Below are positions 7,376 to 62,507 of a stretch of DNA of 64,000 nt, in pieces (the first letter of the stretch is position 1; the number at the start of each line of letters is the position of its first letter). Made by a program: the position numbers and the translations under genes. Source of the stretch: Yuukianura sp. NJ FZ-2021 (lineage: Eukaryota); contig CM102285.1 of assembly GCA_046563655.1 (NCBI GenBank), positions 3,348,001 through 3,412,000 of the forward strand, read 5' to 3'. The notes beneath the pieces are model-generated. The model was not told the DNA's origin, did not search any database, and was given only the letters and a program-made list of their open reading frames with translations.

Positions 7376-7699
7376 TTTTTTCTGCAGAATAAACTTTTAG
7401 CTTTCGGAAACCACTGCACCGATTATGAATCCCTTGTCACAGTTCGATGTCGAAAACGGAGAAATGTTAGAAATCATGACTAATTTCTATTCCTTGTTCA
7501 AAATTTTCAAAGTTAGATTGGGTCAAAAACAGTTTTTATTTTTACGTTCAAGCAGAGGTCAACCAGCAATATTGTAAAAGTAGCTATACAACTCATCTTA
7601 TCTCCAACATAAAGAGGAGTGTATTTGGTCCCAACAAGCCAAAGAGCATGGCATGGGAAAACTACGGAAGCTTAAAAGGGTCAAATCACTTCCCACTTT

Positions 7700-8230
7700 C
7701 CAGTGCTCGGTACTCGATGCACAGTGCGCGGTTCCCAGTACCCGGTGCGCGGTTCCCAGTACTCGGTATCCGCTTCCCAGTACTCAGTGCGCGGTTCCCA
7801 GTTGTCGCTGCGCGGTTCCCAGTTGTGCTGCGCGGTTCCCTGTTGTGCTGCGCGGTTCGCAGTTGTCGCTGCGCGGTTCCCAGTACTCGGTGCGTGGTTG
7901 CCAGCACTCGGTGCGCGGTTCCCAGTACACGGTGCGCAGTTCCCAGTACTCGGTACCCGGTTCCCAGTACTCAGTGCGCGATTGCCAGTACTCGCTGCAC
8001 GGTTCCCAGTACCCGATGCGCGATTCCCAGTACTCGGTATCCGATTCCCAGTACTCAGTGCGCGATTCCCAGTACTCGGTTCCCGGTTTCCAGTACTCGG
8101 TCCCCAGTACTCGGTTCCCAGTACTCGGTGCTCGGTCCGTGGTACCCGTACTCAGTGCGCGGTTCTCGCTTCCCACTACTCAGTACCTGGCCCTCTCTCG
8201 CTTCCCACTGCTCAGTTCCCAGTGCACGGT
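7700..8230. repeat. GC-rich minisatellite, ~21-bp unit (ttcccagtactcggtgcgcgg)
   Basis: Unit visible in the sequence. Gives 7-aa periodic ORFs in several frames. Confidence 0.95.
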
Positions 8231-8235
8231 CCTGA

Positions 8236-8425
8236 TTTCCCACGATTCATTTCCCGAGATTCGTTTCTCGAGATTCATTTCCCAACATTCATTTCCCGAG
8301 ATTCATGTCTCGAGATTCATTTCTCGAGATTCATTTCCCGACATTCATTTCCCGAGATTCATTTCTCGAGATTAATTTCTCGAGATTCATTACTCGAGAT
8401 TCATTATCCCAAGATTAATTTCTCA
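8236..8425. repeat. Minisatellite, 15-bp unit (tttcccgagattcat)
   Basis: Tandem copies directly follow the 21-bp array. Confidence 0.9.
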
Positions 8426-8572
8426 AGAATACTCAACACTTTACTCACAACCCATGGCGGAAAATTCCAAAAAGTGAAATTAATCTAATGAATGAATTTT
8501 GAAAACAAGGGTTACCAGAATATTACCAAAAGAAATTCAAATTAAACAACTTTAATTTTAAATTGAAATTCA

Positions 8573-17790: not shown

Positions 17791-18759
17791 TTACGCATGG
17801 GTATTGTAGTACGTGGTGGCGTTGGGAGTGTTGGTATTGTTCGCCATATTGGCACCGTGATCTCCCATGCCAAGTCCAGTGGCAGAGAAGGGTTGTCCAA
17901 ATCCATACAGATGCCCAGAGTACTTTGACTCGTCAATGTTATCTTCAAAAAATAATTCCTTCATGCGGAAGAACGTGAGGCCAGTGACCAAGGAGTCACT
18001 GCCTGCTTGATGCTGCATTCCAACCCTCTCTATCTGCAACTGATCTGCAACTTCTTGGAGTCCACCCTTCAGGTTCTTGCAGCTCTTCATCAAAAACTTG
18101 ACGTCAAAGACGCGCGGAAAATAGATATGGAGGAGATCATAAAATCCTGCTTCACTTTCCGGTAAATTATGACTCATGAGTAGCCTGATGAGGTAACCAA
18201 AGTCATAGCAACTGTGGAATGTGAGCCATGTTACAGAGTCAGACAAGACGAATCCTGAGGTGATGAAGAATTCAGCAAAACTAAAGGCATCAATTCCATC
18301 AGACTCGTGCTTCTTGAATTGTATTCCTGCGTTTGTAAGGAGTTCTATACTCTCTTGAGCGTACGAATCCTCCGTGAGACTAAACTTGAAATTGAATTGC
18401 CATGTGCAAATTCCTGGTGGTGTTTGGCCATGCTCGTTCATGAATGTTAGTCCCAGTTGAATAAGGGAAAGGATATCCACATTGGACTTTAGAATCTGAT
18501 ATTGGTAGTCGGCACAGTTTCGGAACTCTCCAATGGGGCGGGCCACAACACCCGGAAACTCAGTATCCAGTGCTATGAAGGTATACGTCTTTGCAATGTT
18601 CCGGATTGTTGCAAACTCTTCATAGAGATTGTGCCTCCAGACGTTACGAATACCCTGTACGTCGTTTTCAGGAAAGGACGGACCCAGATGATGCCCATTG
18701 TGTTGATCTGTTCCAATGCCGTTTGTCAAGGCCATCGAGGATAGTAGGGAAGAATGCAT
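17791..18759 (-). CDS. CNOT7: CCR4-NOT deadenylase CAF1/Pop2
   Basis: ALDTEFPGVVARP, TWQFNFKF, FHSCYDFGY and HQAGSDSL DEDD nuclease motifs. Single coding exon. Confidence 0.97.
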   Translation of the reverse strand: MHSSLLSSMALTNGIGTDQHNGHHLGPSFPENDVQGIRNVWRHNLYEEFATIRNIAKTYTFIALDTEFPGVVARPIGEFRNCADYQYQILKSNVDILSLIQLGLTFMNEHGQTPPGICTWQFNFKFSLTEDSYAQESIELLTNAGIQFKKHESDGIDAFSFAEFFITSGFVLSDSVTWLTFHSCYDFGYLIRLLMSHNLPESEAGFYDLLHIYFPRVFDVKFLMKSCKNLKGGLQEVADQLQIERVGMQHQAGSDSLVTGLTFFRMKELFFEDNIDESKYSGHLYGFGQPFSATGLGMGDHGANMANNTNTPNATTYYNTHA

Positions 18760-19528
18760 TTTATTAGGCTAATTAGACTTCGGTGAGGTAGGTGTTAAGC
18801 CTGTTCCTGAAACCATTAACACCAGGTCGAGTCAGTGAAAGCCTAGTTACTTAATAAAAACTTAAACAGTTTCATTTTAGTATAAATAAATATTATATTA
18901 TCAACTGGTGGGGCAAGTATTTCAAAAAGAAAAAAAAATAGTGAAAGTTTACATCCTTACCCAAATATGCAATTAGAACTGATTAAGTTTAAGTTGTCCT
19001 TCACATGTGATAACATCAGAGTAGCACTCACACTCTCGTAACTTACGAGTCCTAAGCGGCGTTATACCAAGCCATTCCTGTCATGTATAGAAATTCAAAC
19101 AAAAAACTTAAAACGTAAATGTATAATGAAGCAATTTAATTCATTAATCTTCTGATTCCCCTTACCTGATACAGTACTGAAAAAGATGACCGCTGAATGA
19201 TGTAGTATTATGAAATACGCACTAAAATTATAGGTGAAGAACACAAAATTCAACAAATGAAAATCTTAAGAAATAAATTCAAATTTTATGAAATAAAATC
19301 GGAAAAGTGACGAGAAGTTGAAATTCAATTCGTACTATTTTCGCGCTTAGAATGAGGGGTACATTGTACCATAATTTGGAAATATTGTGAAGGAATAAAC
19401 CAGAGCTGCACACAATGTACACACAAACCATTCGCAAAACACATTGATTGAGCAGAGCATGGCGGCGATAAAACATCACGATTTATTTCGCTATAACACG
19501 CAACCGACAGAAGTATTTACTAATTTTA

Positions 19529-20952
19529 TCACGCCTTTGCACCACATCTCAGTTTTGCGGATCGACTACGGGGGTTTTGTTCCACTTCGGCTTCCGAAGG
19601 GAAGTGGACATGTTTCGTGACGACTGTCCATTTCGTACCAAGTATCTCCTTCAGTTCTTGTTCGGTGTGAACTTTGGCCGGATTTCGGAACTTCTGACTC
19701 AGGGTTTTGGTGATGGGTTCATCCAAATCTACACCAGTCAAGTGCCTCTTTACTATCCTGTCCTGTTAAACAAATGATACACATTAATTAATAAATTTTA
19801 ATTAGGAATTACTGCTAGAATGACTCGACTAACTTCGAGAGAGTGGAAGGTGAGGACGACTACTCTTCCCCCGGGCACTAGCAACTCTTGGGCGATTTCC
19901 ATTGCTCGATTCAGTTCGTTCATTTCATTGTTGACGAATATACGAATAGCTTGGAAAGTTTTAGTGGCAACATGTGCTGGTCTTGAGAGTTTGTCCAGCC
20001 GCACTTGACCGTCCAATACTGAACCCACTAAAGATGCAAGTTCTGATGTGGTTTGTAGATTCTTGAAGAGATAGCGTGCTTCCACGATTCCTCTCGCCAC
20101 TTTCTTCGCCTGTTTCTCTTCACCATAAACCTAACGTAATTCCAAAAGGTAATCAAAGATACAAAGTCATAAAATGCATTAGAGTGCGTTGCTCCTTACT
20201 TGTATGATTTTTGCCAAGTCCTCTTCATCAATGTAGCGTAGGACTTCGGCTGCTGTTGGTTGACCCGGAAACCTGTCTCCATCCATTCTCATGTCAAGTG
20301 GACCATCGTGACTGATGGAGAAACCTCTTTTCGGGTCATCCAACATCATCGACGAACAGCCCAAATCCAACAGAATGCCATCCACTGAATGAACGGTACA
20401 AATTAATTGTTGGTAGTTCCTTATTATTGAAACACTGGTTCACGAGTTAGTTGCCTATGTTACTGACCTTTATTAAAATTGAGAGACTTGAGTTGTTCCA
20501 AAACCTCACTGAAGCGACTCAAAAGGGGAATTAGTTGATCGGGATACTTTTGACTCAGCTGCTGGGCGAAACGAAAGGCTAAGGGGTCTCTGTCGACCGC
20601 AATAACTTTGACATGAGGGGTGGACTTGAGTATAGCTTCTGTATGTCCACCGGCGCCAAATGTCATGTCCACAATGGTTTGGCCTAAGTAAGAATAGGAC
20701 CAATTAGTACTTGGAATTAAAAACAAAGTATACGTTGGAAGAAGAGACAGGAAGTTTACCTGGTTTTGGATTTAAGTAAGTCATAACTTCACTAAGCATG
20801 ACAGGGGTATGCGGTGTTCGAGGCACGACGCTTCTACTACTAGAGACGGAAGTGAAGGAGTTTCCCAAATCGGTGATGTGACTAAATTGAGGAGAGTTAT
20901 TAGAGTATCTCCGAAGGGAATAGCGAGTGAGAGGCATCAAACGGGGAATCAT
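19529..20952 (-). CDS. METTL15: Mitochondrial 12S rRNA m4C methyltransferase (RsmH/MraW family)
   Basis: [51 protein letters not shown] and [10 protein letters not shown] across 5 exons. Arg/Ser-rich N-terminal presequence. Confidence 0.95.
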
Positions 20953-21482
20953 GATTGGAGTCTCCGCCGAAAGGAAGTAGAGATGCGTTGAAGTGTTGTT
21001 CCCTCTTCTTCCTCCTGGAACTGTTTTATGCTGTCGTTGGAAATGGCAGCATTACACACTTCCGCATTCAAACCTAAAAAATGTGAACATTGAATGAGTG
21101 AAGTGTTGGAGTGTAATTGCGAAGAGGAGTAATGCTGAGTTTACCAGTAGCTGTTTGGACATTGGTTGACACGGGATGGAGACTTCTGTAGTGGTCTGCT
21201 GTGATTCTGGTCAATGGTCCAAGTATTTTGTCCCAAGTGGATGTGTTGAGGTTCTTCTCCTGCAAGGGGTTAAAGGCACGAACAATCTCCTTCCGAATGT
21301 ACTCCCCAAGGTCCCTATGTTCCAAGTGAACAACGCAACTAATCATCATTTCCATTTAATCCATTAATGATCAAATCGTTAGTCTAGATCGTTAGTCTAG
21401 GTGAGTACCTGCCGGATTTGGTTGGATCCAGTGGCCACTTCTGTAGAACCCCTACAATATTTCTATACGTTGGACTATTCAT
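20949..21482 (-). CDS. UQCC2: Complex III assembly factor UQCC2/Cbp6 homolog, 122 aa, 3 exons
   Basis: Exons 21482-21409, 21314-21145 and 21073-20949 give MNSPTYRNIVGVLQKWPLDPTKSGRDLGEYIRKEIVRAF...LTRITADHYRSLHP...TATGLNAEVCNAAISNDSIKQF...RRRLQS*, matching the UQCC2 WPxDxTKxGRDLGxY pattern. Confidence 0.9.
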
Positions 21483-31754: not shown

Positions 31755-32612
31755 ATGTTTCTGTCAATTATTCGAAGGAACATATCATATGTTCAAGGAC
31801 AATACAGAAACAAGACGAGGGAATATTTTTATTTCATTGACCACCAAGGAATGGTAAGTTTGTTTACAATATTTACGCGGGGCTTTCAAGTTATAAAACC
31901 GCGTGTAACTTATACCAAAAGAAATATTGGTTGGCTTAAGGTTTCATGACCGTCGTTGTAACCGTACGCCGCGTACGGTGTACCAAAACCAAAACCACCC
32001 AAAATATTGGATTGACACTTTGTTTTTTTTCTGTATCTGCAGCTATTCATGGATGACGCTAGAATTAAAAATTTTACATCCTGCTTCAAGGGTAATTAAC
32101 TGGCTTACGATTATTAGTTAAAATCACCAAGTTAATGAATTAAATTATGAATATAATGATACTCATCATGTTTTACAGAACAGAAATTTTTGCATTTTTT
32201 CTTGACGAGGGTCAAACGAAACGAATCTGGATTCTACGAAAACGAATTTCCCTACATTTCTCCTTGTGGCCGTGAACTGAATTACATTCGTTGTGATGAC
32301 CTTCCCATCGTTTTCACAAAGGTCGAACGACCAACTAAAGAGCTGATTTGGGGTCATGTCAATGAACTACGAATTCCCTTTGAACCCTCCAAAATCTACA
32401 TGAGTCCAGAGGGCAGAATCTACCATCCATACAACAAGTACCCATTCGTGGGTCTCATCGCTAGTAAAGTCGGAATAGAAATCAGCAACTACTTTGGATT
32501 TGCAAATAATCGTCCAGTGTCGTTCAAATGGGAAGGTCAAACTTATGAACTGACGAACGAATGTGAAGACTTGCTGAAAAAGAATAGATTACATGCTGTG
32601 AAAGATTACTGA
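31755..32612 (+). CDS. UPF0598/C8orf82-like protein
   Basis: YVQGQ...REYFYFIDHQGM|LFMDDARIKNFTSCFK, FPYISPCGRELNYIRCDDLPIVF, GRIYHP. Confidence 0.9.
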
Positions 32613-40619: not shown

Positions 40620-43352
40620 TTAGACGCCGTTGTAAGAACTGCCATTCTTCTTCGCCGGTACACCACTTGGTGGCAGCAGCCTCTGCGTTTCTGTACCTTC
40701 CCCTTCCGAATCCGAATCTTTGTCCATTGCCATAAATCCTTGCTGAATTTCGTCTAGTGTTTTGCCCTTTGTTTCTGGCACGAAAAACAAAATGTAGATG
40801 AGACCTATGAAGCAGAATGCGGCAAACAGTAGAAACGTTCCGTCTGTTCCCATTGAATTCGTCATGTTTCCAAAGAACTTGACCAGTAAGAAAGAAATTG
40901 ACCATTTAACACAAGTCAGGAGACAGGACGCCAGACCTGTAAAGACAAGAAACGCATGAGGTCAAAGGTCAGAACGGCACGTGAATGTTTTGAGTCACAA
41001 ACTTCTGACTCTAAGCTAAAGTGCGCGTTAACTTTAAAGTTTGGAATTGCGAACTACGAGATTTGTGAAATTGTACTATTTTGTTGGGTTTTAGATTAGG
41101 ATTAATCTCGAATTTTTACTCGTAGTTCTACATTTAATGTTGAACTTCATGTAAAAATAGAGCTGACCTTTGACCTGCGGTGGAACTAGTTCGCCCAAAA
41201 GGAGGTACACGATTGGTCCAAGTCCGACGGAGTACGCAAATACAAATATCAGGAGACTTGTCAATGGAAGCCAACCAAGTTCCTTGTAAGGTTGAACTTC
41301 ACTGTGCACTTTTAGGTAGAAGTAGAGTGACAGAGCACAGAGGGAAATCACCATGAACAGTTCCGATAGAATCAAAAATATCTTCCGGCCGAACCGATCT
41401 ACTAAAATGGCAGCTCCAATAGAAGCCAACTGCAGACAAGAAGTAGTTTTTAAGAAATTGTTTTGGTTTAAGAACATGCAATGCCGCCAGTATGTTAATC
41501 CCTGTCTTACCACCTGGAAAATACCGACGTAGATGGCAGCAACGTACTCGTCGATATTGGATCCAGCGGCTTGAAAAATATCCACGGTGTAGAACAGTAC
41601 TGGATCAATTCCAGAAATGACTTGGAGAACAAACAGCACCAGGATTACCGTAAATGGTCTCAGAATGGCGGGACCCAAAAAGTCTCTCCAATTTGCGGAT
41701 TCTTCGCGACTTTTTTGACTCGTTCGACGTAGCTGCATTAAAAAAATAGGGGTTAATAAAAAAAAGCCATTTCAAAAACGATAAACAAAAGTTCGAGTGT
41801 TTTAAGCTGCTTGAAGAACGATTTTTCAAAATTGACGAAAAAGCGCAAAATTTGAATTAAATGTTTACTTACGGCTGCCAATTCATTCTCGACTTGCATG
41901 GCCGATGACGCACCGCGTAGGCGCATGAGTGAACGTCTCGCTCCGGCATCATCTCCCTTGTCAACCAAGTATATCGGTGACTCTGGGACGAACATCATCA
42001 TGGCAAAGATGATGGCCGGTACGATTGCACTGAGCAGCGTGTAGGTTCGCCATGGCATGAAGCATCCGAGGACATAACTGTAACATTACCATTAGCGATT
42101 TGCCAGACCAAACATTTGAAATTCAAAATTGTGACATTTTTAAGCTGATTAGTCCGGCGCATATGCCAGTAAGTAGGGGATTAATTGTCGCAATGTTAAT
42201 CACTATGTCTTACTTACATCAAAAGTTGACCTAGAGTAATGGCCAAGTCGAATCCAGCACCGAGTAAACCACGGATTTTGACATCTGATACTTCTGCAAT
42301 GAACAGCGGTGCGATTACGACAAATCCACCTCCGCAGAATCCTGGACAAAAAAAAATATGGGATGGGTTACTGTATGCTGGATTAAAACTTAATTCTGTT
42401 AAGTAAGTTATGAAAATCTAAGTTCTTCCTATGAATTTAAAGTAATTAGAGTAATAATGAGTGTAATTACTATGAATTTAAAGTAATTATAGTAGTTTGA
42501 GCGTAATTATTTGTAATTACTTGTAATTACTTGAAATTACTTGAGAGTGGAGACAATTATTTGGAACTTACCGGTAGTAAAACGGCCGGCGTTAATCATA
42601 TTCACTGTCGTAGCAAAATATNNNNNNNNNNNNNNNNNNNNNNNNNNNNNNNNNNNNNNNNNNNNNNNNNNNNNNNNNNNNNNNNNNNNNNNNNNNNNNN
42701 NNNNNNNNNNNNNNNNNNNNNATATGAGAAGCCATCCAACAAAAAACGGAACTGTAAATAGAAGCATGGAATTCCGCCGTCCAATTTTTTCTAATAAAAT
42801 TCCAGCGATTGGAGTAGAAATGACGGCAGCAAGCTAAACGTATTGCAAGAGTTAGTAAATTTTAGTTTCAAGATTCTGCGCATGCTCAGGTACGTTTCAT
42901 TACCGTAACAATAGATCCGATCCATGATTCTTCAGAATCTGTTATCGTAAAATTTGGATCTTTTCGGAGATCGGGTAGTGCTGCAAGTATTTACACAAAA
43001 AATTCAGAATTGAACTTAAAAAGCGACATAATCGTGTACGGTGCGCATGCGCCTTACCAACAGCAGACCAGCATAGAACGATTCCTAGGGCCAACGCTCC
43101 CATATTTGCTGAAAAATTTAAACATTGGCGTGTTTTTACCGCAATACGAAATAGCCGGTTTTTTTTTAAAAGTTTTTTATGCTTACCGGCTATACCGGAG
43201 AAATACTGCACAGATTTGCTAGCACTGAAAAGTAACTCTTCACTATGTCCAGGTTCATTTAAACTTTCAACTCGTTTTCTGGCTCTGATGTATACATCGC
43301 TAAACGATTTTTTACGCGTCCGCTGCGGTCGAGACGCTTGCTCGCCAGCCAT
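40620..43352 (-). CDS. Facilitated trehalose transporter Tret1-like MFS sugar transporter
   Basis: PESP, SGIDPVLFY, DRFGRK, GLGP...GE and PETKGKTL motifs. Contains an assembly gap. Confidence 0.92.
42622..42721. other. Assembly gap (100 N) inside a Tret1-like exon
   Basis: Run of N. The flanks read GWLLI / YFATT, so little or no coding sequence appears to be missing. Confidence 0.98.
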
Positions 43353-49759: not shown

Positions 49760-51363
49760 TTAATTGTGTCCAATAAACGTAGGGATGGACTGTGGGTTAC
49801 GGAAGTAATTATCCGGGTCATACTTCTGTTTGACATGTACAAGTTTATGAAGGTTACTACCGTAATACCGCTTCAAATAATCCGTCAGACTTCCATCAGC
49901 ATAATTTTGGTACGATTCCTTGTGTTTGAAAACAGTTTTTCCAAGGTCATAAATTTCCTCCACCCAAATGTCGGCAGCAGTTTCCGTTCGATTCTGAGGA
50001 TTAGCTACTTGGTTCAAAACGGCTACAATGTCATACCTTCCCTTTCGATGAACAAAAGCAGTTTCATGAACTTTGACATCGTTTGTGGCGCCTCCTAACG
50101 GGTGAAAATATAAGGTCAGAGTGGGAGGCACTTTTTGTAAAAGTGTTAGCATCCGTGACAGGTCAAGGTCACTGGCAACCTTTTGAACAAAAAGGATTTG
50201 ACCGTCAAATATTCTTTTCCAGACGACATTCGACTGAGATTCGACAGATCTTGAGCTGCCAATACACTTGGCTTCTGAATGTACTCACGAGATACAAAAA
50301 CAATAAAATCTGGATACGAATACCATGCACGGGAATTGAATTCTGGTGGCGGGAATGACTTTAGAATGGCGTCTAACTGGTGAGACCTGCCCTCCAAGAC
50401 TTCAAAAGTTCCCAAAATGGTTCCATTGGACACAACTAACTTTCCAGTAAGTGTTCTGGCAGCGTGGATTGAAAATTGTTGCCAAGCTTTATAAACTTGG
50501 ACGAAACTGTTCAAGTTCCATTTCAAAACGAGGACAAAAATTACAGGTGGGGCTGGGAAGACTTTGAATGTTAAGGAAGTGACGACCCCAAACGACGCAG
50601 CTCCCCCACCGCGCAGCGCCCAGAACAAGTCAGAGTTAACGTCTTTGTTGACAGTAAGTAGTTGACCGTCAGCAGTGACAATGCGCAGGCTCAAAATCAA
50701 GTCGCATGTGAAACCGCGCATGCGTGACAAGTAGCTGCGACCACCACCAGTCGCGAATCCCGTGATTCCTAGCTGTGGACATGACGGAATTTGAAACGTC
50801 ACTCGCCCAATGTTAAATAAAGTCATAGCAATCCGACCGAGCTAGTATAATTAGAAAATTTGTTTTGAAATTTTATGATGACAGACTTTTTTCAAAATTC
50901 AAAAAATATCGGAATTTAAAGTTTAACTTTGACTAACCGTGGCTCCCCCGCCAACCGTTGCCGTTGATTTTGAGCTGTCTAGTGTTACGGCATTCAAATA
51001 CTGGACGTCAATTACCACTGAACGTCTGTTTCCAAAAGAATATTTGGGAAAAGAGTGACCTCCTGCCAGCGTCACCAACCTGACATTGTACTTTCGTCCA
51101 CAATTTACCGTCACAACGACGTCCATTTCCGTCCTCACTAAAATGAAAGCCTTTGGACGGATTTCTTTTGGCTTTTGTTGCCATTGGTAGTTCAGCGTTT
51201 CGTACTGCATAGAATTGCTTCTACGCGGAACAATATTTTCTGGGCGAAAGTCTCTTTCCAGAAGACAGTTTTTGAAATTTGAAAATCTTCCTGCTTGCAG
51301 TCCATCAACCGCTAAGTTCAGCAGTACGTAAGTACAAACGCCAAGTTTTACAAAAGCCTGCAT
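49760..51363 (-). CDS. Secreted BBE/AA7-like FAD-linked oxidoreductase, copy 1; 1-nt frameshift at ~50190 (pseudogene or sequencing error)
   Basis: Signal peptide, AGGHS, SCPQLG, WALRGGG, C-terminal YYGSN...KYDPDNYFRNPQSIP. Adding one T to the T5 run (plus-strand A at 50189-50193) restores KSFFVQKVASDLDLSRML. Confidence 0.85.
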
Positions 51364-51606
51364 TTTTTGCAACAGTAAAAGTATTACTGGTGGGTAAAAA
51401 AGTGCTCCACTTACACAAAAGGCTATAAAAATTAATTCCTGAATTCTATAAAGATTTTATTGTATTTTCACCTGAATCTGTCAATTTTTAACTAGAAGAA
51501 TTTTGAACCTAGTACGTCACAGCCTTTTTTGATTAATAAAAGTTTCAAAATTTCAGCCAAACGCGATAAAAACTTTTACATGAAGAACAAAATTTAATGA
51601 CAAACA

Positions 51607-53195
51607 TTAAATTTTTGTAGGAATTGATTGAGGGTTATTAAAGTAATTGTCGGGGTCAAATTTTTGTTTGACCTGAACCAGTCTCGGCAGATTACTTCCG
51701 TAGTATCTTTTCAAATGGTGTGCAAGGTCTCCATCTGCATAATTTTGGTAAGACTCTTGGTGATTGAAAACTTTTTTTGAAAGTTCAAAAATTTCAGTTA
51801 GCCAAACATCAGCAGCAGTTTCCGATGGATTCCGAGGATTAGCTATGTTTGTGATCCCAGCAATAGCGTATCTTCCTTTTCGATGAACGTAGGCCGTTTC
51901 ATGAACTTTGACATCATTAATAGCACCACCGTACGGATGAAAGAATAAAGTTACTGTTGGAGGCACTTTCAACAGAAGGTGCAGTAGGCGGGAGAGGTCA
52001 TCGTGACCCGCCAGTTTTTGAACATAAAAGGATTTCAAGCCTTCATACTGTTTTATAGCCGAATGACGAGTAACATTCAACAAATCCTGTGGTCCAAATC
52101 CATTTGGCATGTAAATGTATTCTTCAGCCGCGAAAATCAAAAAATCTGGATAAGAATAGGGCGCGCGAGATTTGAATTCTGGTGGCGGGAACGTTTTTTG
52201 AATTAGTTCCAACTCGAATCCAGTTCCAGTCAAGTCTAGAAAAGTGCCCAAAATTGTTCCATTGGCAATATTTAGTTTTCCAGAAATTGTTCTTGGTGCG
52301 TGAAGTGCAAAATTTTGCCAAGCTTCAAAAACTTTTACGAAATTGGACAAGTTCCATTTCAAAATTTCAACAAAAATTATCGGCGGCGCTGGAACGGTTT
52401 TGAAAGTTAAGGAAGTTACGATTCCGAATGAGGAAGCTCCGCCTCCGCGCAAGGCCCAATAGAGGTCAGAGTTCACATCTTTGCTGACTGCACGGAGTTG
52501 TCCATCGGCAGTGACAATGCGCAAGCTCAGAATGAAGTCACTTGTGAGACCGTAAGTTCGGGACAAGTACGTATTGCCACCTCCTGTTGCCAATCCGACA
52601 ATACCTACGCTTTGACAATTTGGAATTTCAAATGTTACTCGTCCTCTATTCCACAAGGTCATCACAATTGGCCCATTCTGGAAATTTCAAAACTCATTTT
52701 TAAAAATTTTATGAAATTCTAACTCCGAAGCTCTTTTGTTTCTAAAAATTGAATTGCATAAAATTTTGAAATTACCAAAGCCCCAGCGCCGATGGTTGCC
52801 GTTTGTCCTAAACTGTTCAGCGTGATGTCATTTAGTAGCTGAAGGTCAATGACCACAGAATGTTCATCTCCAAACGAGTATTTTTCATTGGAGTGACCTC
52901 CACCCAGAGCCACCATTGACACGTTGAAGTGTCGTCCACAAAGGACGGAAGCCACGACGTCCTTTTCCGTCCTTACCAAAATGAAAGCCAAAGGACGAAT
53001 GTTTTTCCGTCTTTGCTGCCATTGGTAGTTTAAATCGTTGTACTGTTTGGAATTGCTTCTGCGCACAATATTTCCCGAACCGACGCCGCTTTCCAGGAGA
53101 CAGTTTTTGAAACTTGAAAAAACTTCGGCACGAAGTCCACCGAACGTCAAAAAAAGTACAAAACTCAAAATGACAAATACTGCAACAGCTTTCAT
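51607..53195 (-). CDS. Secreted BBE/AA7-like FAD-linked oxidoreductase, copy 2 (2 exons)
   Basis: GGGHS, NCQSVG, WALRGGG, YQNY, YYGSNLPRL...FDPDNYF. Confidence 0.93.
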
Positions 53196-53500
53196 TTCGA
53201 CTTTTACAAAAAGAATGAAGTTTAGAAAGTTTTGCACACACAAAAAATTTTACATTACAGTATACGTGAATTTTTGATTCAAGTGACAAGAAAGTTTAAT
53301 GACACTTGAGCTGAATCAATCAATTTCAATATACAGGGCTTCCAATCGTAAGTTTTTTTCTATAATTTGGCTCAAATATTAAATAAAATTTTGGAAAAAA
53401 AAATCTTTTACACTCCTACGAAATTTAAATTCTCAACCAATACAATTAAGTCAAACGTTAGGCTAGTTAGGATATGCCACTAATACCGTAAGGTCAAAGG

Positions 53501-55389
53501 TCAAATTCTAGTGGGAATTGACTGTGGATTGTGAAAGTAGTTGTCTGGATCATACTTTTTCTTGATACGAACTAAACGTTGAAGGTTACTTCCATAGTAT
53601 CTCTCCAAGTAATAATCATTGCTCAACTGTGCATCGACATAATTTTGATACGACTCTTTTTGATCAAAAATTTTGGCACCAAGTTCAAAAAACTTTTGTT
53701 CCCAAAAATAAATATTGCTGGATTCCAATTTGTTTTTAGGAATGTTAGAATACTTGATTGCCGCAAGAGCAAGTCTACCGCTTCGATGTACAAATGCGGT
53801 GTCGTGAATGTCAATGTCGTTAATGGCTCCACCAAAAGCTCCAAATGAAATATGTAAATCATTTGGCATTTGACGTATGAATGTCGCCAGCAACAAAATG
53901 TCTCCGTCACTTGCAATTTTTTGAACAAAAAATGACTTTTCAATTTGATACGTCTGGGGAGCCGAAGTCCGATCGACGGTTAGCAATTCTTGCGGGTCAA
54001 TCGTCGCTCCATTTTTGCGACGCTTGAGGTCATCTCCGGCAATAGTAATCAAGTAGTCAGGAAAATTCAAATAATCCCGCGAAATAGATGTTGCCACAGG
54101 GAAAGAGTTCATAACTTTTTCAAAATTTGAATCCGTTCCTGTAGAATCTACAAAAAGTATGAAGAATCTATTATTGTAAATATTAAGTTTTGCGGTAAGC
54201 GTTCTTGGTCCATCGGTTGTAAAGGTTTGCCAAGATTTGAAAACGAGCGGGAACAAATCAAGAATCCAAGACACCGTGGCAGTAAAAAACTTTGGAGGTG
54301 CTGGAACGAGTTTCATAGTTAATGACGTTATGACTCCAAATGACGCCGCTCCACCGCCACGTAGAGCCCAGTAGAGATCGGAGTTGACGTCTTGGTTGAC
54401 GACTAAGCTTCGTCCGTCAGCAGTGACAATGCGCATGCTCTGAATATAGTCTGTCGTTAATCCGTACTGACGTGACGTAAATCCGTAACCACCTCCTGTA
54501 GCTAATCCAGAAATTCCGACAGTTGGACACGTTCCGACTGGAAAAAACGATCGAGCGCTGTTCCACAAAGTCATCATTACCGGACCGGCCTAAAAAAATG
54601 TAAAGTGTTTTGGTCGTATATTAGATCAACTCCGTATTAATCAAAAACAATTTCGACCAATGAGATTTGTGTTAACTAGAACATTTTATCAACTAGTATT
54701 GGATCAACCACCTAATTGTATCAACAGGTCAACCGAACGTGACCTTGCTCCACCTGTTCGTGCAAATGTAAATTGGATCAAAATTACAATTTACAATTGC
54801 ATCAAATGTTTCCGAGTAATTCTTTTTGATGATGCAATTTGGAATGGATCGTAATCGATTGAAGTTGAACTATTCCAATTGACGATTGAAATAGCCTTGC
54901 TATTACAATTGTGAACTTTCGATTCAAAATTTTTTCGAATACTTTTTTGAATTTTTTTTTGAATACCAGCACTCCAGAACCGATGACCACCGATGAATTG
55001 TCAATGTCCGGAACAATTGATCTCAAATTCCGCAAATCCAGCACCACAGAATCACTGTCTCCGAAGGAATACTTTTCAAAGGAATGTCCGCCAGCTCTTG
55101 CGACGACACGTACGTCCGTCTTTTTGCCGCAGATGACTGACGTCACTACGTCATTTTCACTGGTTACGACGATGTACGCCAAAGGACGAATATTTGGTGG
55201 CTTGAGTTGCCAGTGGAAGTTGAGCTGATGGTATTTCTTAGAATTCGGACTTCTGTGCACAATCATTCCAGAAACAACGCCACGATCCAGGAGACAGCGT
55301 TTAAAAGATCCAAAATCTCCAGCACACGAACTTTGCACCATGGCAAGCAAAACTAGACAAAAAAATTTTAAATTCCGCGCCACTTCCAT
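53501..55389 (-). CDS. Secreted BBE/AA7-like FAD-linked oxidoreductase, copy 3 (2 exons)
   Basis: RAGGHS, GTCPTVG, GGGYG, WALRGGG, BBE C-terminal motif. Confidence 0.93.
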
Positions 55390-55832
55390 TTTGTTTCCAC
55401 TTCGTGAATGGAGTTAACTCAAATATTCCAGGTTGTTTTGAGGGTGGCTGGAGCCAGTTGACCTTTTGTGTAGTTTGAACTTGGAGGCATGACAGAAGAA
55501 TGGAGCTTAACCTCACAATGTAAAAAGCAGTCAATGATTTATTGGAGGAAGGGAGGTTATGTTAAAGTTAACTAAAATTAGTCACGGTTTAACATAGATA
55601 AACAAGGTGAAACCACGATTTCCGATGTGCAAATTAATTCTTACTTGAAAAACATACTAAAAACAAAAAGTAGGACGAAGTTTACACCTCAAAAGTTTCC
55701 TGGCAGACAATGTTTTTTTGCGTAATAAACTCAAAATTGTTGAGGTTTCCGAATAGTTTTAAAAAGAAACCAAAAGTAATATAAAAAGCAAAAGAAAGTT
55801 TTCAAAATTTCAAAAAGAGCGAAAAACATGGA

Positions 55833-57446
55833 TTAGCTAAACTTGACCTTTGACCTTGAGTAATTTTTGCTTTTTCTTAAAATAGGAGGGATAGATTGTG
55901 GATTGTAAAAGTAGTTATCAGGATCATATTTTCTTTTGACTTCAACCAGTCGCGGAAGGTTGCTGCCGTAGTATCTGGTCAAGTAGTTCCTCAGTTGCCC
56001 ATCGACGTAGTTTTGATACGTTTCATTTCCATCAAAAATTTTTGCGCCAAGTTCAAAATATTCGTCCAATAGAGGTTTTCCCGCCAAAACGGATGTTGTA
56101 TTTCCGTCAGCTATGTACATTCCTATAATTCCAAGAGCGAATCTTCCCGTTCGATGTACAAAGGCTGATTGGTCATTCGGTACATCATTGATGGCTCCAC
56201 CGTAGGCTTGAAATGACACGGTCATAGACTGGGGCAGCTTGAGAATTTGGTCACGGACAAGTTCAAGGTCACCTTTGCCCACCATTTTTTGAACATAGAA
56301 TGAACTTTCTATTTGGTACGACGGTGTAGTCGAATAGCGTTGAATTTGAAGTAACCCCTGCGGGTTAACAACGTTGTTCACGAGACCGTATGCAAGAATA
56401 AAATCAGGGAAAGTGAACAAGTTTTGAGTGGTTGAATTGGCGGGAGGAAACAATTTTTGAATCTGGTCGTAATTTTTGGTCGTTCCGTCAGAATCTATGA
56501 AAGAAATTGAAATCGTGCCGGCATTGATGTTCATTTTGGCAGTGACACTTCTTGGACCGTCAATGGTAAAATTTTGCCATGCTTCGTAAACTTCCTCGAA
56601 GCGCTCCAGTGGCCATGTAGGTGTGACAGCAAAGATTGCTGGAGGTGCGGGAACAATCTTCATGATGAAGGACGTGATGATTCCAAATGACGCGCCACCA
56701 CCACCGCGCAGTGCCCAATATAAATCGCTGTTGGTGGTATTGTTGACGACAAGAAGCTGTCCATTGGCTGTGACTATGCGCATGCCCACGATGTAGTCTA
56801 CTGTCAAACCGTATTGCCTTGCTTGAAATCCAAATCCACCACCAGTAGCCAGTCCAGAAATTCCTACAGTTAGGCAACTGGATACTGGAAAAAACGATTT
56901 CGCTCCATTCCATAACGTCATGATTATTGGACCAATCTGAAAAATGAGGTCAAATAGCTTTAGTAGTTAGTAGATAAGCTTGGATTGTTGAAAATTTTGA
57001 AATTTTTAGATTCAGTGTCTTACCAATGCTCCTGAACCGATGGTGGCGGTTGAGGTAGAGTTATCCAGTACGACAGAGTCCAATTTGCTTAAATCCAGAA
57101 CGACCGAGCGATTATCTCCAAACGAGTATTTCTCGAAAGAGTGACCCCCAGATCTGGGGACGACTCGTACGCCGTACTTCCTACCGCAAACGACTGCTGC
57201 AACAACGTCATCTTCATCTTTTGCTTGAAAGTACGCTAATGGATGAATGTTTGGAGGTTTCAGTTGCCAGTGAAAATTCAGGTCAGTGTATGACCTTGAG
57301 TTCCCACGAACGACGATTTTTGACGCGTCTTTTCCGCCACCTTCAACACAAGCCTGGAAAGCCTGAAAATCACTTTCCCCATTAGTTTCACCTGTAACTA
57401 CACAGACTGACGTTAGGGCAAGTAGGATTGCTCCTAGAGCGGGCAT
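55833..57446 (-). CDS. Secreted BBE/AA7-like FAD-linked oxidoreductase, copy 4 (2 exons)
   Basis: RSGGHS, SSCLTVG, WALRGGG, BBE C-terminal motif, several N-x-S/T sequons. Confidence 0.93.
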
Positions 57447-61313: not shown

Positions 61314-62507
61314 TCAGAGGTAAAAGCTCTTGGGTGTGTCAGCCACGAAGACATGATTGTGGCGCTCCATGAGTTGGATATCTTTTTCCAGATCCTTCAA
61401 CTCCGCTTCCAGCGCACTCTTCCGTTTGACCAGACCTTCAGTGTCGATATACAGCGGAAGAGACTGGTACTCACGGTAAGTTTCAGCCCAGTTCATTTTC
61501 AATCCGTTGATCATGCTTTGTCGTTCCACTTCGTCGAGATGACGACATTTCGCCTGTGCTGCCATGTCAGCATTCTCTGCCTCACATTTTGCCTTTTGAT
61601 CAGCTTCGTAGAGTTCTCTCTTCCGATTAACGAGGTAGCCCGGAATCATTCCAAAGTCTTGACGACACACGTACTTCCGAGGATAGCCAGAAACGCCCCA
61701 CTCGAACCGATGTCCCTTGGGATGGTCAACATAGAAGCTTTGTGGAACCTTTCCTGGCTGCCGGATAACCTTGAGAGCATTGTCCATCACGTAGTCTTTT
61801 TTCCCGCGCTGAATCACCGCAAATCCTTGGCACGGTGAAGGAATGCTTGGTTTCTGACGATTACAACAGAGGCGTGGAACGCGTGCCCGAGCCATGACGA
61901 CGTTCACTTGGCATTCTTCCGTGCCGCCTTGATTACAATCTCCGCTTTGGGCTGGAGCGCCGTCGCATTCTTGAGTTTGAGCATTAGCATCCCCAGCTCC
62001 GTCCGGTTTTGATTCACATACTTGGTTTGCCGAATTTGCACTTGCAAACTTCACGCGTGGAACTAAGTCAAATTGGAATTAGATTTAAGTAAAGTTTGAA
62101 ACTAGGATGATAAAAATCGATAATTCGATATAAATTTGGTAAAACGGCACATCGATTTAATTGGATTTAAATAACAATTAGCTTACCCGCTGCGGGCCGA
62201 ACCGAAATCGGAACACGCGATTGCTTCCGCAAGTAGTTTTCAGGAGGGCAGAGGCAGACCTGCGGAAGACCCATTGTTCGGAAACACCCAGTTTTCTGGC
62301 AGCAGCTTTCGCTTTTCACCATGTTTGAATATCTCGACCGATACCTATAATACAAACAATGGTTTATCGTTAACATGAACATTCTAGTCATTTACTCCTA
62401 CAATTGACATGGACTTACATTGGCGGCTTCATGATGTGACAATCTGGGATTTGAATGGCATTGTAGACACTCTCGCCATGATTGATATTGCGACACAAGG
62501 TGTACAT
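61314..62507 (-). CDS. ENKUR: Enkurin-like protein
   Basis: ESVYNAI, YRSRY, RTMG...PPENYLRK, DFGMIPGYL, GLKMNW...YQSLPLYIDT...RK..LEAELKDLEKDI. Confidence 0.85.

Follow-up and report, generated by a model that had tools for sequence, protein, structure and literature searches.

An ATGA stop-start overlap of UQCC2 and METTL15 in a springtail genome and a candidate ancient dicistronic unit

The genes UQCC2 and METTL15 lie head to tail on the minus strand of a 64,000-nucleotide (nt) stretch of Yuukianura sp. NJ FZ-2021 (GenBank assembly GCA_046563655.1, contig CM102285.1, positions 3,348,001 to 3,412,000; hereafter the window, numbered from its first letter), where the first gene's stop codon and the second gene's start codon fall within a single ATGA. 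We take UQCC2 to be a synthesis and assembly factor of cytochrome b and METTL15 to be the 12S rRNA N(4)-methylcytidine (m4C) methyltransferase acting in maturation of the small mitoribosomal subunit, going in part by source names and the listing of PMC3873243. The two complete open reading frames (ORFs) share a strand and adjoin so tightly that neither a promoter nor a poly(A) site would fit in between, as in dicistronic genes in the FlyBase sense, of which 159 pairs are counted for Drosophila in PMC4528330. The locus would add a member to this accepted arthropod class, which is itself already known.

The Drosophila dicistrons stoned, Snapin, Adh/Adhr and Mocs2/CG42503 likewise combine unrelated same-strand ORFs with a tiny spacer or none. 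Cistron 1 of stoned and Snapin contains no in-frame AUGs (Wall et al. 2005, as related in PMC3372440 and PMC11892635), a trait shared by UQCC2, and such AUGs weaken the second cistron (the same work, via PMC3372440). Unlike the Drosophila cases, the stop and start of UQCC2-METTL15 truly overlap, and the pair is known here from its genes alone. The arrangement is absent from D. melanogaster itself, where the METTL15 orthologue CG14683 shares its 5' untranslated region (UTR) with pug. The sloth1/sloth2 locus (SMIM4/UQCC5 and C12orf73/UQCC6) is also a bicistronic nuclear locus for mitochondrial proteins that includes a complex III assembly factor; it has a 5-nt spacer, a weak Kozak context at ORF 1 and a strong one at ORF 2, leaky scanning demonstrated with reporters, and a linkage conserved far beyond insects (PMC9681215). 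UQCC2-METTL15 resembles it in the very short intercistronic distance and, by the base at -3 in the window, may do so in the start contexts. The sloth proteins, however, are small peptides, paralogous to each other and joined in a complex, whereas UQCC2 and METTL15 are unrelated, with a first ORF of 122 codons and a second that encodes a 374-residue enzyme.

Green-algal bicistrons show AUG depletion upstream of ORF 2, a weak ORF 1 context and short inter-ORF regions (PMC11892635), and such loci are described as conserved over hundreds of millions of years, many of them encoding organellar proteins (PMC11892635, PMC7896298). The short first ORF, its weak context and the short inter-ORF region are common to both systems; the algae belong to a different kingdom, and the AUG depletion in the window concerns in-frame AUGs only. 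Reinitiation at AUGA or UAAUG overlaps operates in viruses, at victorivirus CP/RdRp, calicivirus VP1/VP2 and influenza B M1/BM2. These overlaps resemble the present one in joining stop and start in the same tetranucleotide after a long upstream ORF; they need a termination upstream ribosome-binding site (TURBS) or a pseudoknot, whereas neither a stable structure nor a TGGGA motif was found at the junction in the window. A literature search found no description of the UQCC2-METTL15 pair. Its interest lies in how far back its conservation reaches, in the service of both products to mitochondrial gene expression, in a genuine stop-start overlap that follows a 122-codon ORF and in a natural series of spacers among relatives.

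Gene models and the ATGA junction

The features of the locus, in order of transcription, are as follows.

21409..21482, minus strand: UQCC2 exon 1; ATG at 21482-21480 in the weak context gtacttATGA, with C at -3
21145..21314, minus strand: UQCC2 exon 2; matches PF20180; out-of-frame ATG at 21162-21160
20949..21073, minus strand: UQCC2 exon 3; stop TGA at 20951-20949; out-of-frame ATGs at 21067-21065 and 21052-21050
20962..20963, minus strand: AG behind a run rich in pyrimidines; candidate cryptic 3' splice acceptor, 9 nt before the METTL15 ATG
20949..20952, minus strand: ATGA stop/start overlap; METTL15 ATG at 20952-20950, UQCC2 TGA at 20951-20949
20760..20952, minus strand: METTL15 exon 1; start context ccaatcATGA, with A at -3; second ATG at 20937-20935
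20468..20683, minus strand: METTL15 exon 2; PF01795 with the GxGGH S-adenosylmethionine (SAM)-binding region; AATAAA at 20474-20469, on the exon 2/intron 2 border
20200..20384, minus strand: METTL15 exon 3; PF01795
19834..20130, minus strand: METTL15 exon 4; PF01795; 78% identity to Orchesella dallaii METTL15
19529..19762, minus strand: METTL15 exon 5; stop TGA at 19531-19529
19482..19487, minus strand: AATAAA, 42 nt past the METTL15 stop; likely poly(A) signal

Spliced and translated at GT..AG borders, the three UQCC2 exons give a coding sequence (CDS) of 369 nt and a protein of 122 residues, and the five exons of METTL15 (RsmH in bacteria) encode 374 residues. All six introns of the two genes are of the GT..AG type and measure 69-94 nt, and the GC content is 35-43%. 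UQCC2 exon 2 alone matched the Pfam family PF20180 (UQCC2_CBP6) with an E-value of 2e-4 and 22.3 bits, below the gathering cutoff of 27.9 because the piece is only 56 residues long; used alone as a protein-search query it returned 15 candidates, none of which scored. The spliced 122-residue protein reached 101.8 bits (E 1e-33) against a hidden Markov model (HMM) built from 66 homologues annotated with PF20180. METTL15 exons 2-5 matched PF01795 (MraW/RsmH) with E-values of 1.5e-7 to 1.5e-24, covering profile positions 24-306 of 309. The protein carries DMTFGAGGH in the SAM-binding GxGGH region, and its top named relatives are labelled METTL15 or 12S rRNA N(4)-cytidine methyltransferase. By eye, its N-terminus resembles a mitochondrial presequence, being basic and poor in acidic residues.

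UQCC2 ends in the codons CTC CAA TCA TGA (...R L Q S), and METTL15 begins with ATG ATT CCC, so that positions 20951-20950 belong to both the start and the stop codon. Upstream of 20952 the METTL15 frame stays open for 35 codons that contain no ATG, which makes 20952 the earliest possible METTL15 start; the second in-frame ATG follows 15 nt past the first. A scan for the canonical forms AATAAA and ATTAAA found none between the UQCC2 stop and 20474, and the sole well-placed poly(A) signal is the AATAAA at 19487-19482, which would likely serve both ORFs if the unit is dicistronic. The initial annotation had placed the stop, the start and the second methionine at exactly these positions and had claimed that no intergenic DNA is left for a poly(A) site or promoter; the coordinates are all correct, and the overlap and the poly(A)-signal scan agree with the claim.

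Recurrence and spacing of the pair in relatives

Metagenome loci were collected by alignment with springtail-like METTL15 proteins, and 80 were retained. The top 13 (L001 to L013, 47-71% identity) look eukaryotic and were studied, and the other 67 (34-41%) were taken as bacterial RsmH. In these 13 loci UQCC2 was sought upstream of METTL15 by tblastn and HMM search. L006, L007 and L010 start within METTL15 and were left out of the testable set, and L003, in which the METTL15 N-terminus is absent and no UQCC2 was found, is ambiguous. A UQCC2 ORF lies directly upstream on the same strand in eight of the nine loci that include the METTL15 start and upstream DNA (L001, L002, L004, L005, L008, L009, L011 and L013); the UQCC2 of L008 scores 60.4 bits on PF20180. 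The spacers, taken as the distance between the UQCC2 stop and the earliest ATG in frame with METTL15, are these.

Window: -4 nt, ATGA
L002, L004 and L005: -4 nt, ...TCA AAA TGA / ATG ACT, again ATGA
L011: +2 nt, TAATAATG
L008: +26 nt
L013: +27 nt
L009: +31 nt
L001: +55 nt

Near the junction L002, L004 and L005 share 97% identity, and they were therefore counted as one lineage. A quick maximum-likelihood tree of 36 rows (23 named proteins from 120 listed, seven loci, five Joint Genome Institute proteins and the window) placed the window and L001 in an eight-row clade together with the springtail Orchesella, at a support of 98 by the Shimodaira-Hasegawa-like approximate likelihood ratio test (SH-aLRT). 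L002, L004 and L005 fall beside the termite Zootermopsis (SH-aLRT 99), and L008, L009 and L011 form a separate clade (SH-aLRT 100); the latter three are probably crustaceans because the UQCC2 of L008 is 58% identical to that of Daphnia sinensis. Orchesella dallaii is also the best named match of 177 for METTL15 exon 4. L013 has both UQCC2 intron positions in common with the window, and its exon 2 is 60% identical to Folsomia candida. The UQCC2 of the window itself has only 29-35% identity to those of Folsomia and Orchesella, so the window probably comes from a different springtail lineage.

Named genomes show the same linkage. Both genes share a contig in three beetles, Popillia, Asbolus (a contig of 4,414 nt) and Henosepilachna (adjacent locus tags WA026_004813 and WA026_004814), and in the springtail Orchesella. 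In three further annotated proteins, from Carabus (P0020), Holotrichia (P0040) and Trypoxylus (P0203), the UQCC2 and METTL15 Pfam domains are fused; the first two came from the METTL15 search and the third from the UQCC2 search. The Holotrichia and Trypoxylus fusions lack the presequence of METTL15 as well as a portion of its SAM-binding region, and the beetle fusion proteins are probably gene-prediction artefacts due to the tight dicistronic arrangement. In practical terms, gene predictors fuse or truncate the pair, and three beetle annotations hold both domains in one protein.

Since the arrangement recurs in relatives, the ATGA juxtaposition is more than chance. The pair is found both in the metagenome loci and in named genomes, so the head-to-tail order is older than the springtail-insect split, and it probably predates the pancrustacean radiation. 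The exact ATGA overlap is not ancestral, because other springtail-like loci have 27- and 55-nt spacers, and it seems to have arisen at least twice. The conservation check proposed with the initial annotation thus came out in two parts: UQCC2 stands upstream in eight of nine testable loci, and the exact ATGA is not kept, with spacers from -4 to +55 nt. Its wider proposal, that the pair forms one bicistronic unit, gains strong comparative support here, to which the AUG-poor UQCC2 described below adds.

Individual loci showed further structural peculiarities. The first UQCC2 intron of L013 (2340-2418) has an apparent GC donor (AG|GCGAGT) in place of GT and sits at the same phase-2 position as intron 1 of the window. 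L001 carries an intron-like insertion of about 100 nt in UQCC2 (186-285), at the position of window intron 2, for which canonical in-phase GT..AG borders were not found; its METTL15 is uninterrupted, versus four introns in the METTL15 of the window. In L008 a third same-strand ORF (1925-2401) follows METTL15 after about 430 nt, with a weak, below-cutoff Ribosomal_S17 match (E 3.6e-4); this ORF is a possible mitoribosomal S17 gene, in which case three mitochondrial-translation genes would stand in a row. L008 is without the conserved UQCC2 intron that its close relatives retain (P0172, P0166 and P0173 read into that intron). The missing intron would suit complementary DNA (cDNA), but with the S17-like ORF downstream L008 may be genomic.

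AUG content of UQCC2 and the production of METTL15

UQCC2 is poor in AUGs, as would be predicted for a first cistron. No in-frame internal ATG occurs in UQCC2 in any of the seven modelled loci, and 43 of 66 full-length UQCC2 proteins, mostly from arthropods, lack internal methionine. The frequency of internal methionine is 0.53% in these 66 proteins and 2.66% in 88 METTL15 proteins of mostly the same groups, a depletion of about five-fold. Among the named UQCC2 rows from outside the pancrustaceans, the centipede has two internal methionines, Limulus three, the fish two, the sponge one and the spider none. Out-of-frame ATGs in UQCC2 were compared with codon shuffles, and depletion was seen in L013 (0 seen, 3.5 expected, P 0.016), L008 (1 seen, 4.0 expected, P 0.048) and L011 (2 seen, 5.2 expected, P 0.06). 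The three out-of-frame ATGs of the window stand in poor contexts (C, T and G at -3) and open ORFs of 7-13 codons, all of which close 73 nt or more ahead of the METTL15 ATG. At -3 the UQCC2 start carries C in both the window and L013, and every one of the seven loci has a purine there at the METTL15 start.

The gene models, the overlap, the conserved arrangement and the depletion of AUG and methionine are established. On balance we favour the reading of UQCC2 and METTL15 as a single dicistronic transcription unit of ancient origin, in which METTL15 would be made by leaky scanning on one mRNA. We likewise lean, with similar reserve, towards an age of this unit at least that of the springtail-insect split, and probably pancrustacean. 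The two ORFs of this unit would depend on a single promoter upstream of 21482 and a single poly(A) signal near 19487, and the intercistronic spacer would have shrunk to the ATGA overlap in the springtail of the window. UQCC2 would be made by cap-dependent initiation at its weak-context AUG, and METTL15 by those 40S subunits, a minority, that pass this AUG while scanning and then meet no in-frame and only three poor-context out-of-frame AUGs. As an additional route, ribosomes that terminate at the UGA might step back one base and reinitiate at the AUG. The outcome would be much UQCC2 and little METTL15 under common transcriptional control. We infer the shared transcript, the initiation route and the stoichiometry from sequence comparison.

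Several observations weigh against a dicistronic unit read by leaky scanning. The ninth testable locus, L012, has 2,076 nt upstream of METTL15 without UQCC2, and D. melanogaster CG14683 shares its promoter as well as its 5' UTR with pug (supplement of PMC4528330). Methionine depletion is not universal, as 23 of the 66 UQCC2 proteins have one to three internal methionines, and it could derive partly from family composition, the compared rows being phylogenetically related. Out-of-frame ATGs are not depleted in the window (3 seen, 2.8 expected, P 0.70) or in the termite-like loci (6-8 seen, 4.4-5.5 expected, P 0.89-0.94), and the 6-8 kept in the latter argue against pure leaky scanning there. 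Only 45 of the 159 FlyBase dicistronic loci are reported as exclusively dicistronic (PMC4528330). Finally, reinitiation after a long ORF, here of 122 codons, is described as normally inefficient in the discussion of PMC11892635, which bears on the additional route.

Contig sizes provide circumstantial evidence on a shared mRNA. By a hand tally in unnamed assemblies, 17 of 29 UQCC2 matches with a spliced-looking N-terminus have a longest contig of 1.45-1.9 kb, and for none of the 29 is it shorter than 900 nt; 1.45-1.9 kb is the expected size of UQCC2, METTL15 and UTRs together. P0127 (spliced, longest contig 1,572 nt) and P0172, which has the same exon 2 and runs on through the intron border, appear to be an RNA and a DNA form belonging to a single species. 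Small contigs of equal size occur in both hit lists (P0086/P0183, 1,647 nt; P0091/P0159, 1,642 nt; P0080/P0204, 1,843 nt); they may hold both genes but carry little weight, with about one match expected by chance on a rough estimate from some 50 contigs per list. If the shared transcript is real, the locus would join Mocs2 and sloth1/sloth2 among the few dicistronic animal loci conserved for several hundred million years, and the unit would couple cytochrome b synthesis and assembly with maturation of the small mitoribosomal subunit. The spacer series (-4, +2 and +26 to +55 nt), with its varying degree of AUG purging, offers a comparative system for leaky scanning versus reinitiation.

The most credible alternative, less likely but quite plausible, is separate transcription, with a METTL15 transcription start site within UQCC2 (in an intron or exon 3) that yields a monocistronic METTL15 mRNA and with the linkage kept only through the embedded promoter. 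The UQCC2 mRNA would then read through to the METTL15 poly(A) site or end internally, for example at the AATAAA at 20474-20469, whose position at the METTL15 exon 2/intron 2 border could allow a UQCC2-only mRNA. Such transcripts would have ample precedent, because most FlyBase dicistronic loci have monocistronic alternatives, for both genes in 45 of 159 and for one gene in 69 of 159, and the promoter arrangement of METTL15 is evolutionarily flexible, the Drosophila gene using the promoter of another gene (both from PMC4528330). A separate start would also bypass the out-of-frame ATGs ahead of METTL15, three in the window and 6-8 in the termite-like loci. However, separate transcripts do not account for the complete lack of in-frame ATGs in UQCC2 in all seven loci, for the roughly five-fold depletion of methionine or for the out-of-frame depletion in L008, L011 and L013, and an embedded promoter would not require a stop-start distance of -4 to +55 nt in every lineage seen.

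Coupled termination-reinitiation as the dominant route in the species of the window is a more doubtful proposition. Here the 122 UQCC2 codons would be translated to the UGA stop and a fraction of ribosomes would restart at the AUG, the overlap having evolved from a spaced ancestral dicistron to resemble the AUGA/UAAUG overlaps of some RNA viruses. The junctions lend this some appeal, since the window and the termite-like lineage each have ATGA, independently of one another, with the near-overlap TAATAATG in L011. In neither of the two lineages with ATGA have out-of-frame AUGs been purged, and the spaced L008 and L013 are depleted of them, a correlation that fits two routes and hints at a switch of mechanism, in a comparison of two lineages with three. 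In contrast, no sign of a viral-type helper element, either a stable structure or TGGGA, was found near the junction: the predicted RNA fold of 150 nt gave a z score of +0.48, with 137 of 200 shuffles folding as well, and TGGGA, a motif of the calicivirus TURBS, is absent within 120 nt upstream in all seven loci. The overlap itself is not conserved, other springtail-like loci having the 27- and 55-nt spacers, and the generally poor reinitiation after long ORFs noted above tells directly against this route. We regard as equally doubtful the broader proposal that the springtail of the window and, independently, termites collapsed a spaced dicistron to AUGA and now make METTL15 mainly by reinitiation after an ORF of 116-122 codons, without a TURBS-like element. 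If true, AUGA reinitiation would bring a mechanism in the style of viruses to an ordinary nuclear mRNA of an animal, fixing a high UQCC2 to low METTL15 ratio.

Alternative cis-splicing would join the donor of UQCC2 exon 1 (21409|21408) to the AG at 20963-20962 and give a METTL15-specific mRNA, whose 29-codon upstream ORF, ending at the same TGA, would allow efficient reinitiation. This is improbable. The acceptor is plausible in form, with a pyrimidine-rich stretch followed by AG at 20981-20962, and exon 1, which ends in phase 2, stays in frame to the TGA when joined there (read by hand); at the corresponding position, however, there is no AG in L002, the only relative checked, which belongs to the near-identical trio of termite-like contigs. 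Cross-gene splicing is predicted elsewhere, in the two beetle annotations (P0040 and P0203) that splice UQCC2 exons to internal METTL15 exons, but their omission of the presequence and part of the SAM-binding region makes them look like artefacts of gene prediction.

A spliced leader (SL) trans-spliced operon of the nematode or tunicate style is very improbable and was rejected. Some SL-type operons have zero intercistronic distance, and the METTL15 ATG has an AG 9 nt upstream, yet if this AG took part in trans-splicing, UQCC2 would be severed ahead of its stop codon, and any other upstream acceptor would truncate it too. The distance from the METTL15 stop to the neighbouring CAF1 gene, about 770 nt, is ordinary, and an Rfam scan of the 64-kb window gave no matches and thus no SL RNA, which is weak evidence. 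We know of no report of SL trans-splicing in springtails. For insects, a statement in PMC7986045 has it as absent.

The fusion of UQCC2 and METTL15 by a -1 ribosomal frameshift, raised in the initial annotation and compatible with the METTL15 frame being the -1 frame of UQCC2 and open for 35 codons before its ATG, has a next to negligible probability and was ruled out, as the whole UQCC2 CDS has no in-frame X_XXY_YYZ heptamer, the frame relation differs among relatives (frame 0 in L013 and, worked out manually, frame 1 in L009 and L001), spacers of 26-55 nt part the ORFs in L008, L013, L009 and L001, and a fusion would bury the METTL15 presequence.

Other features of the window

A single-exon gene for a CAF1/CNOT7-type deadenylase (17791-18759, minus strand, PF04857, E 1.1e-23) is the downstream neighbour of METTL15 on the same strand, at a spacing that is ordinary compared with the UQCC2-METTL15 junction. 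Farther along, the minus strand at 49760-56966 carries a tandem array of at least four genes for flavin adenine dinucleotide (FAD)-linked oxidases with a C-terminal berberine-bridge (BBE) domain. Their long ORFs lie at 49760-50841, 51607-52686, 53501-54589 and 55833-56966, each with a shorter N-terminal ORF ahead of it, and the one copy checked matched PF08031 (BBE, E 1.4e-17) and PF01565. This family is unusual in animals, and a horizontal origin is a possibility.

A low-complexity repeat at 7480-8488 leaves several frames open on both strands, with translations such as ...RFPVLGARFPVL... and ...STRCAVPSTR..., and looks like a minisatellite and not a gene. An assembly gap of 100 N (42622-42721) lies just upstream, on the plus strand, of a sugar-transporter ORF (41091-41771, PF00083). 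The Enkurin-domain ORF (61314-62078, minus strand, PF13864, E 1.6e-23) and the DUF4505 ORF (32160-32612, plus strand, PF14956, E 7.8e-44) are ordinary ciliary or conserved eukaryotic genes.

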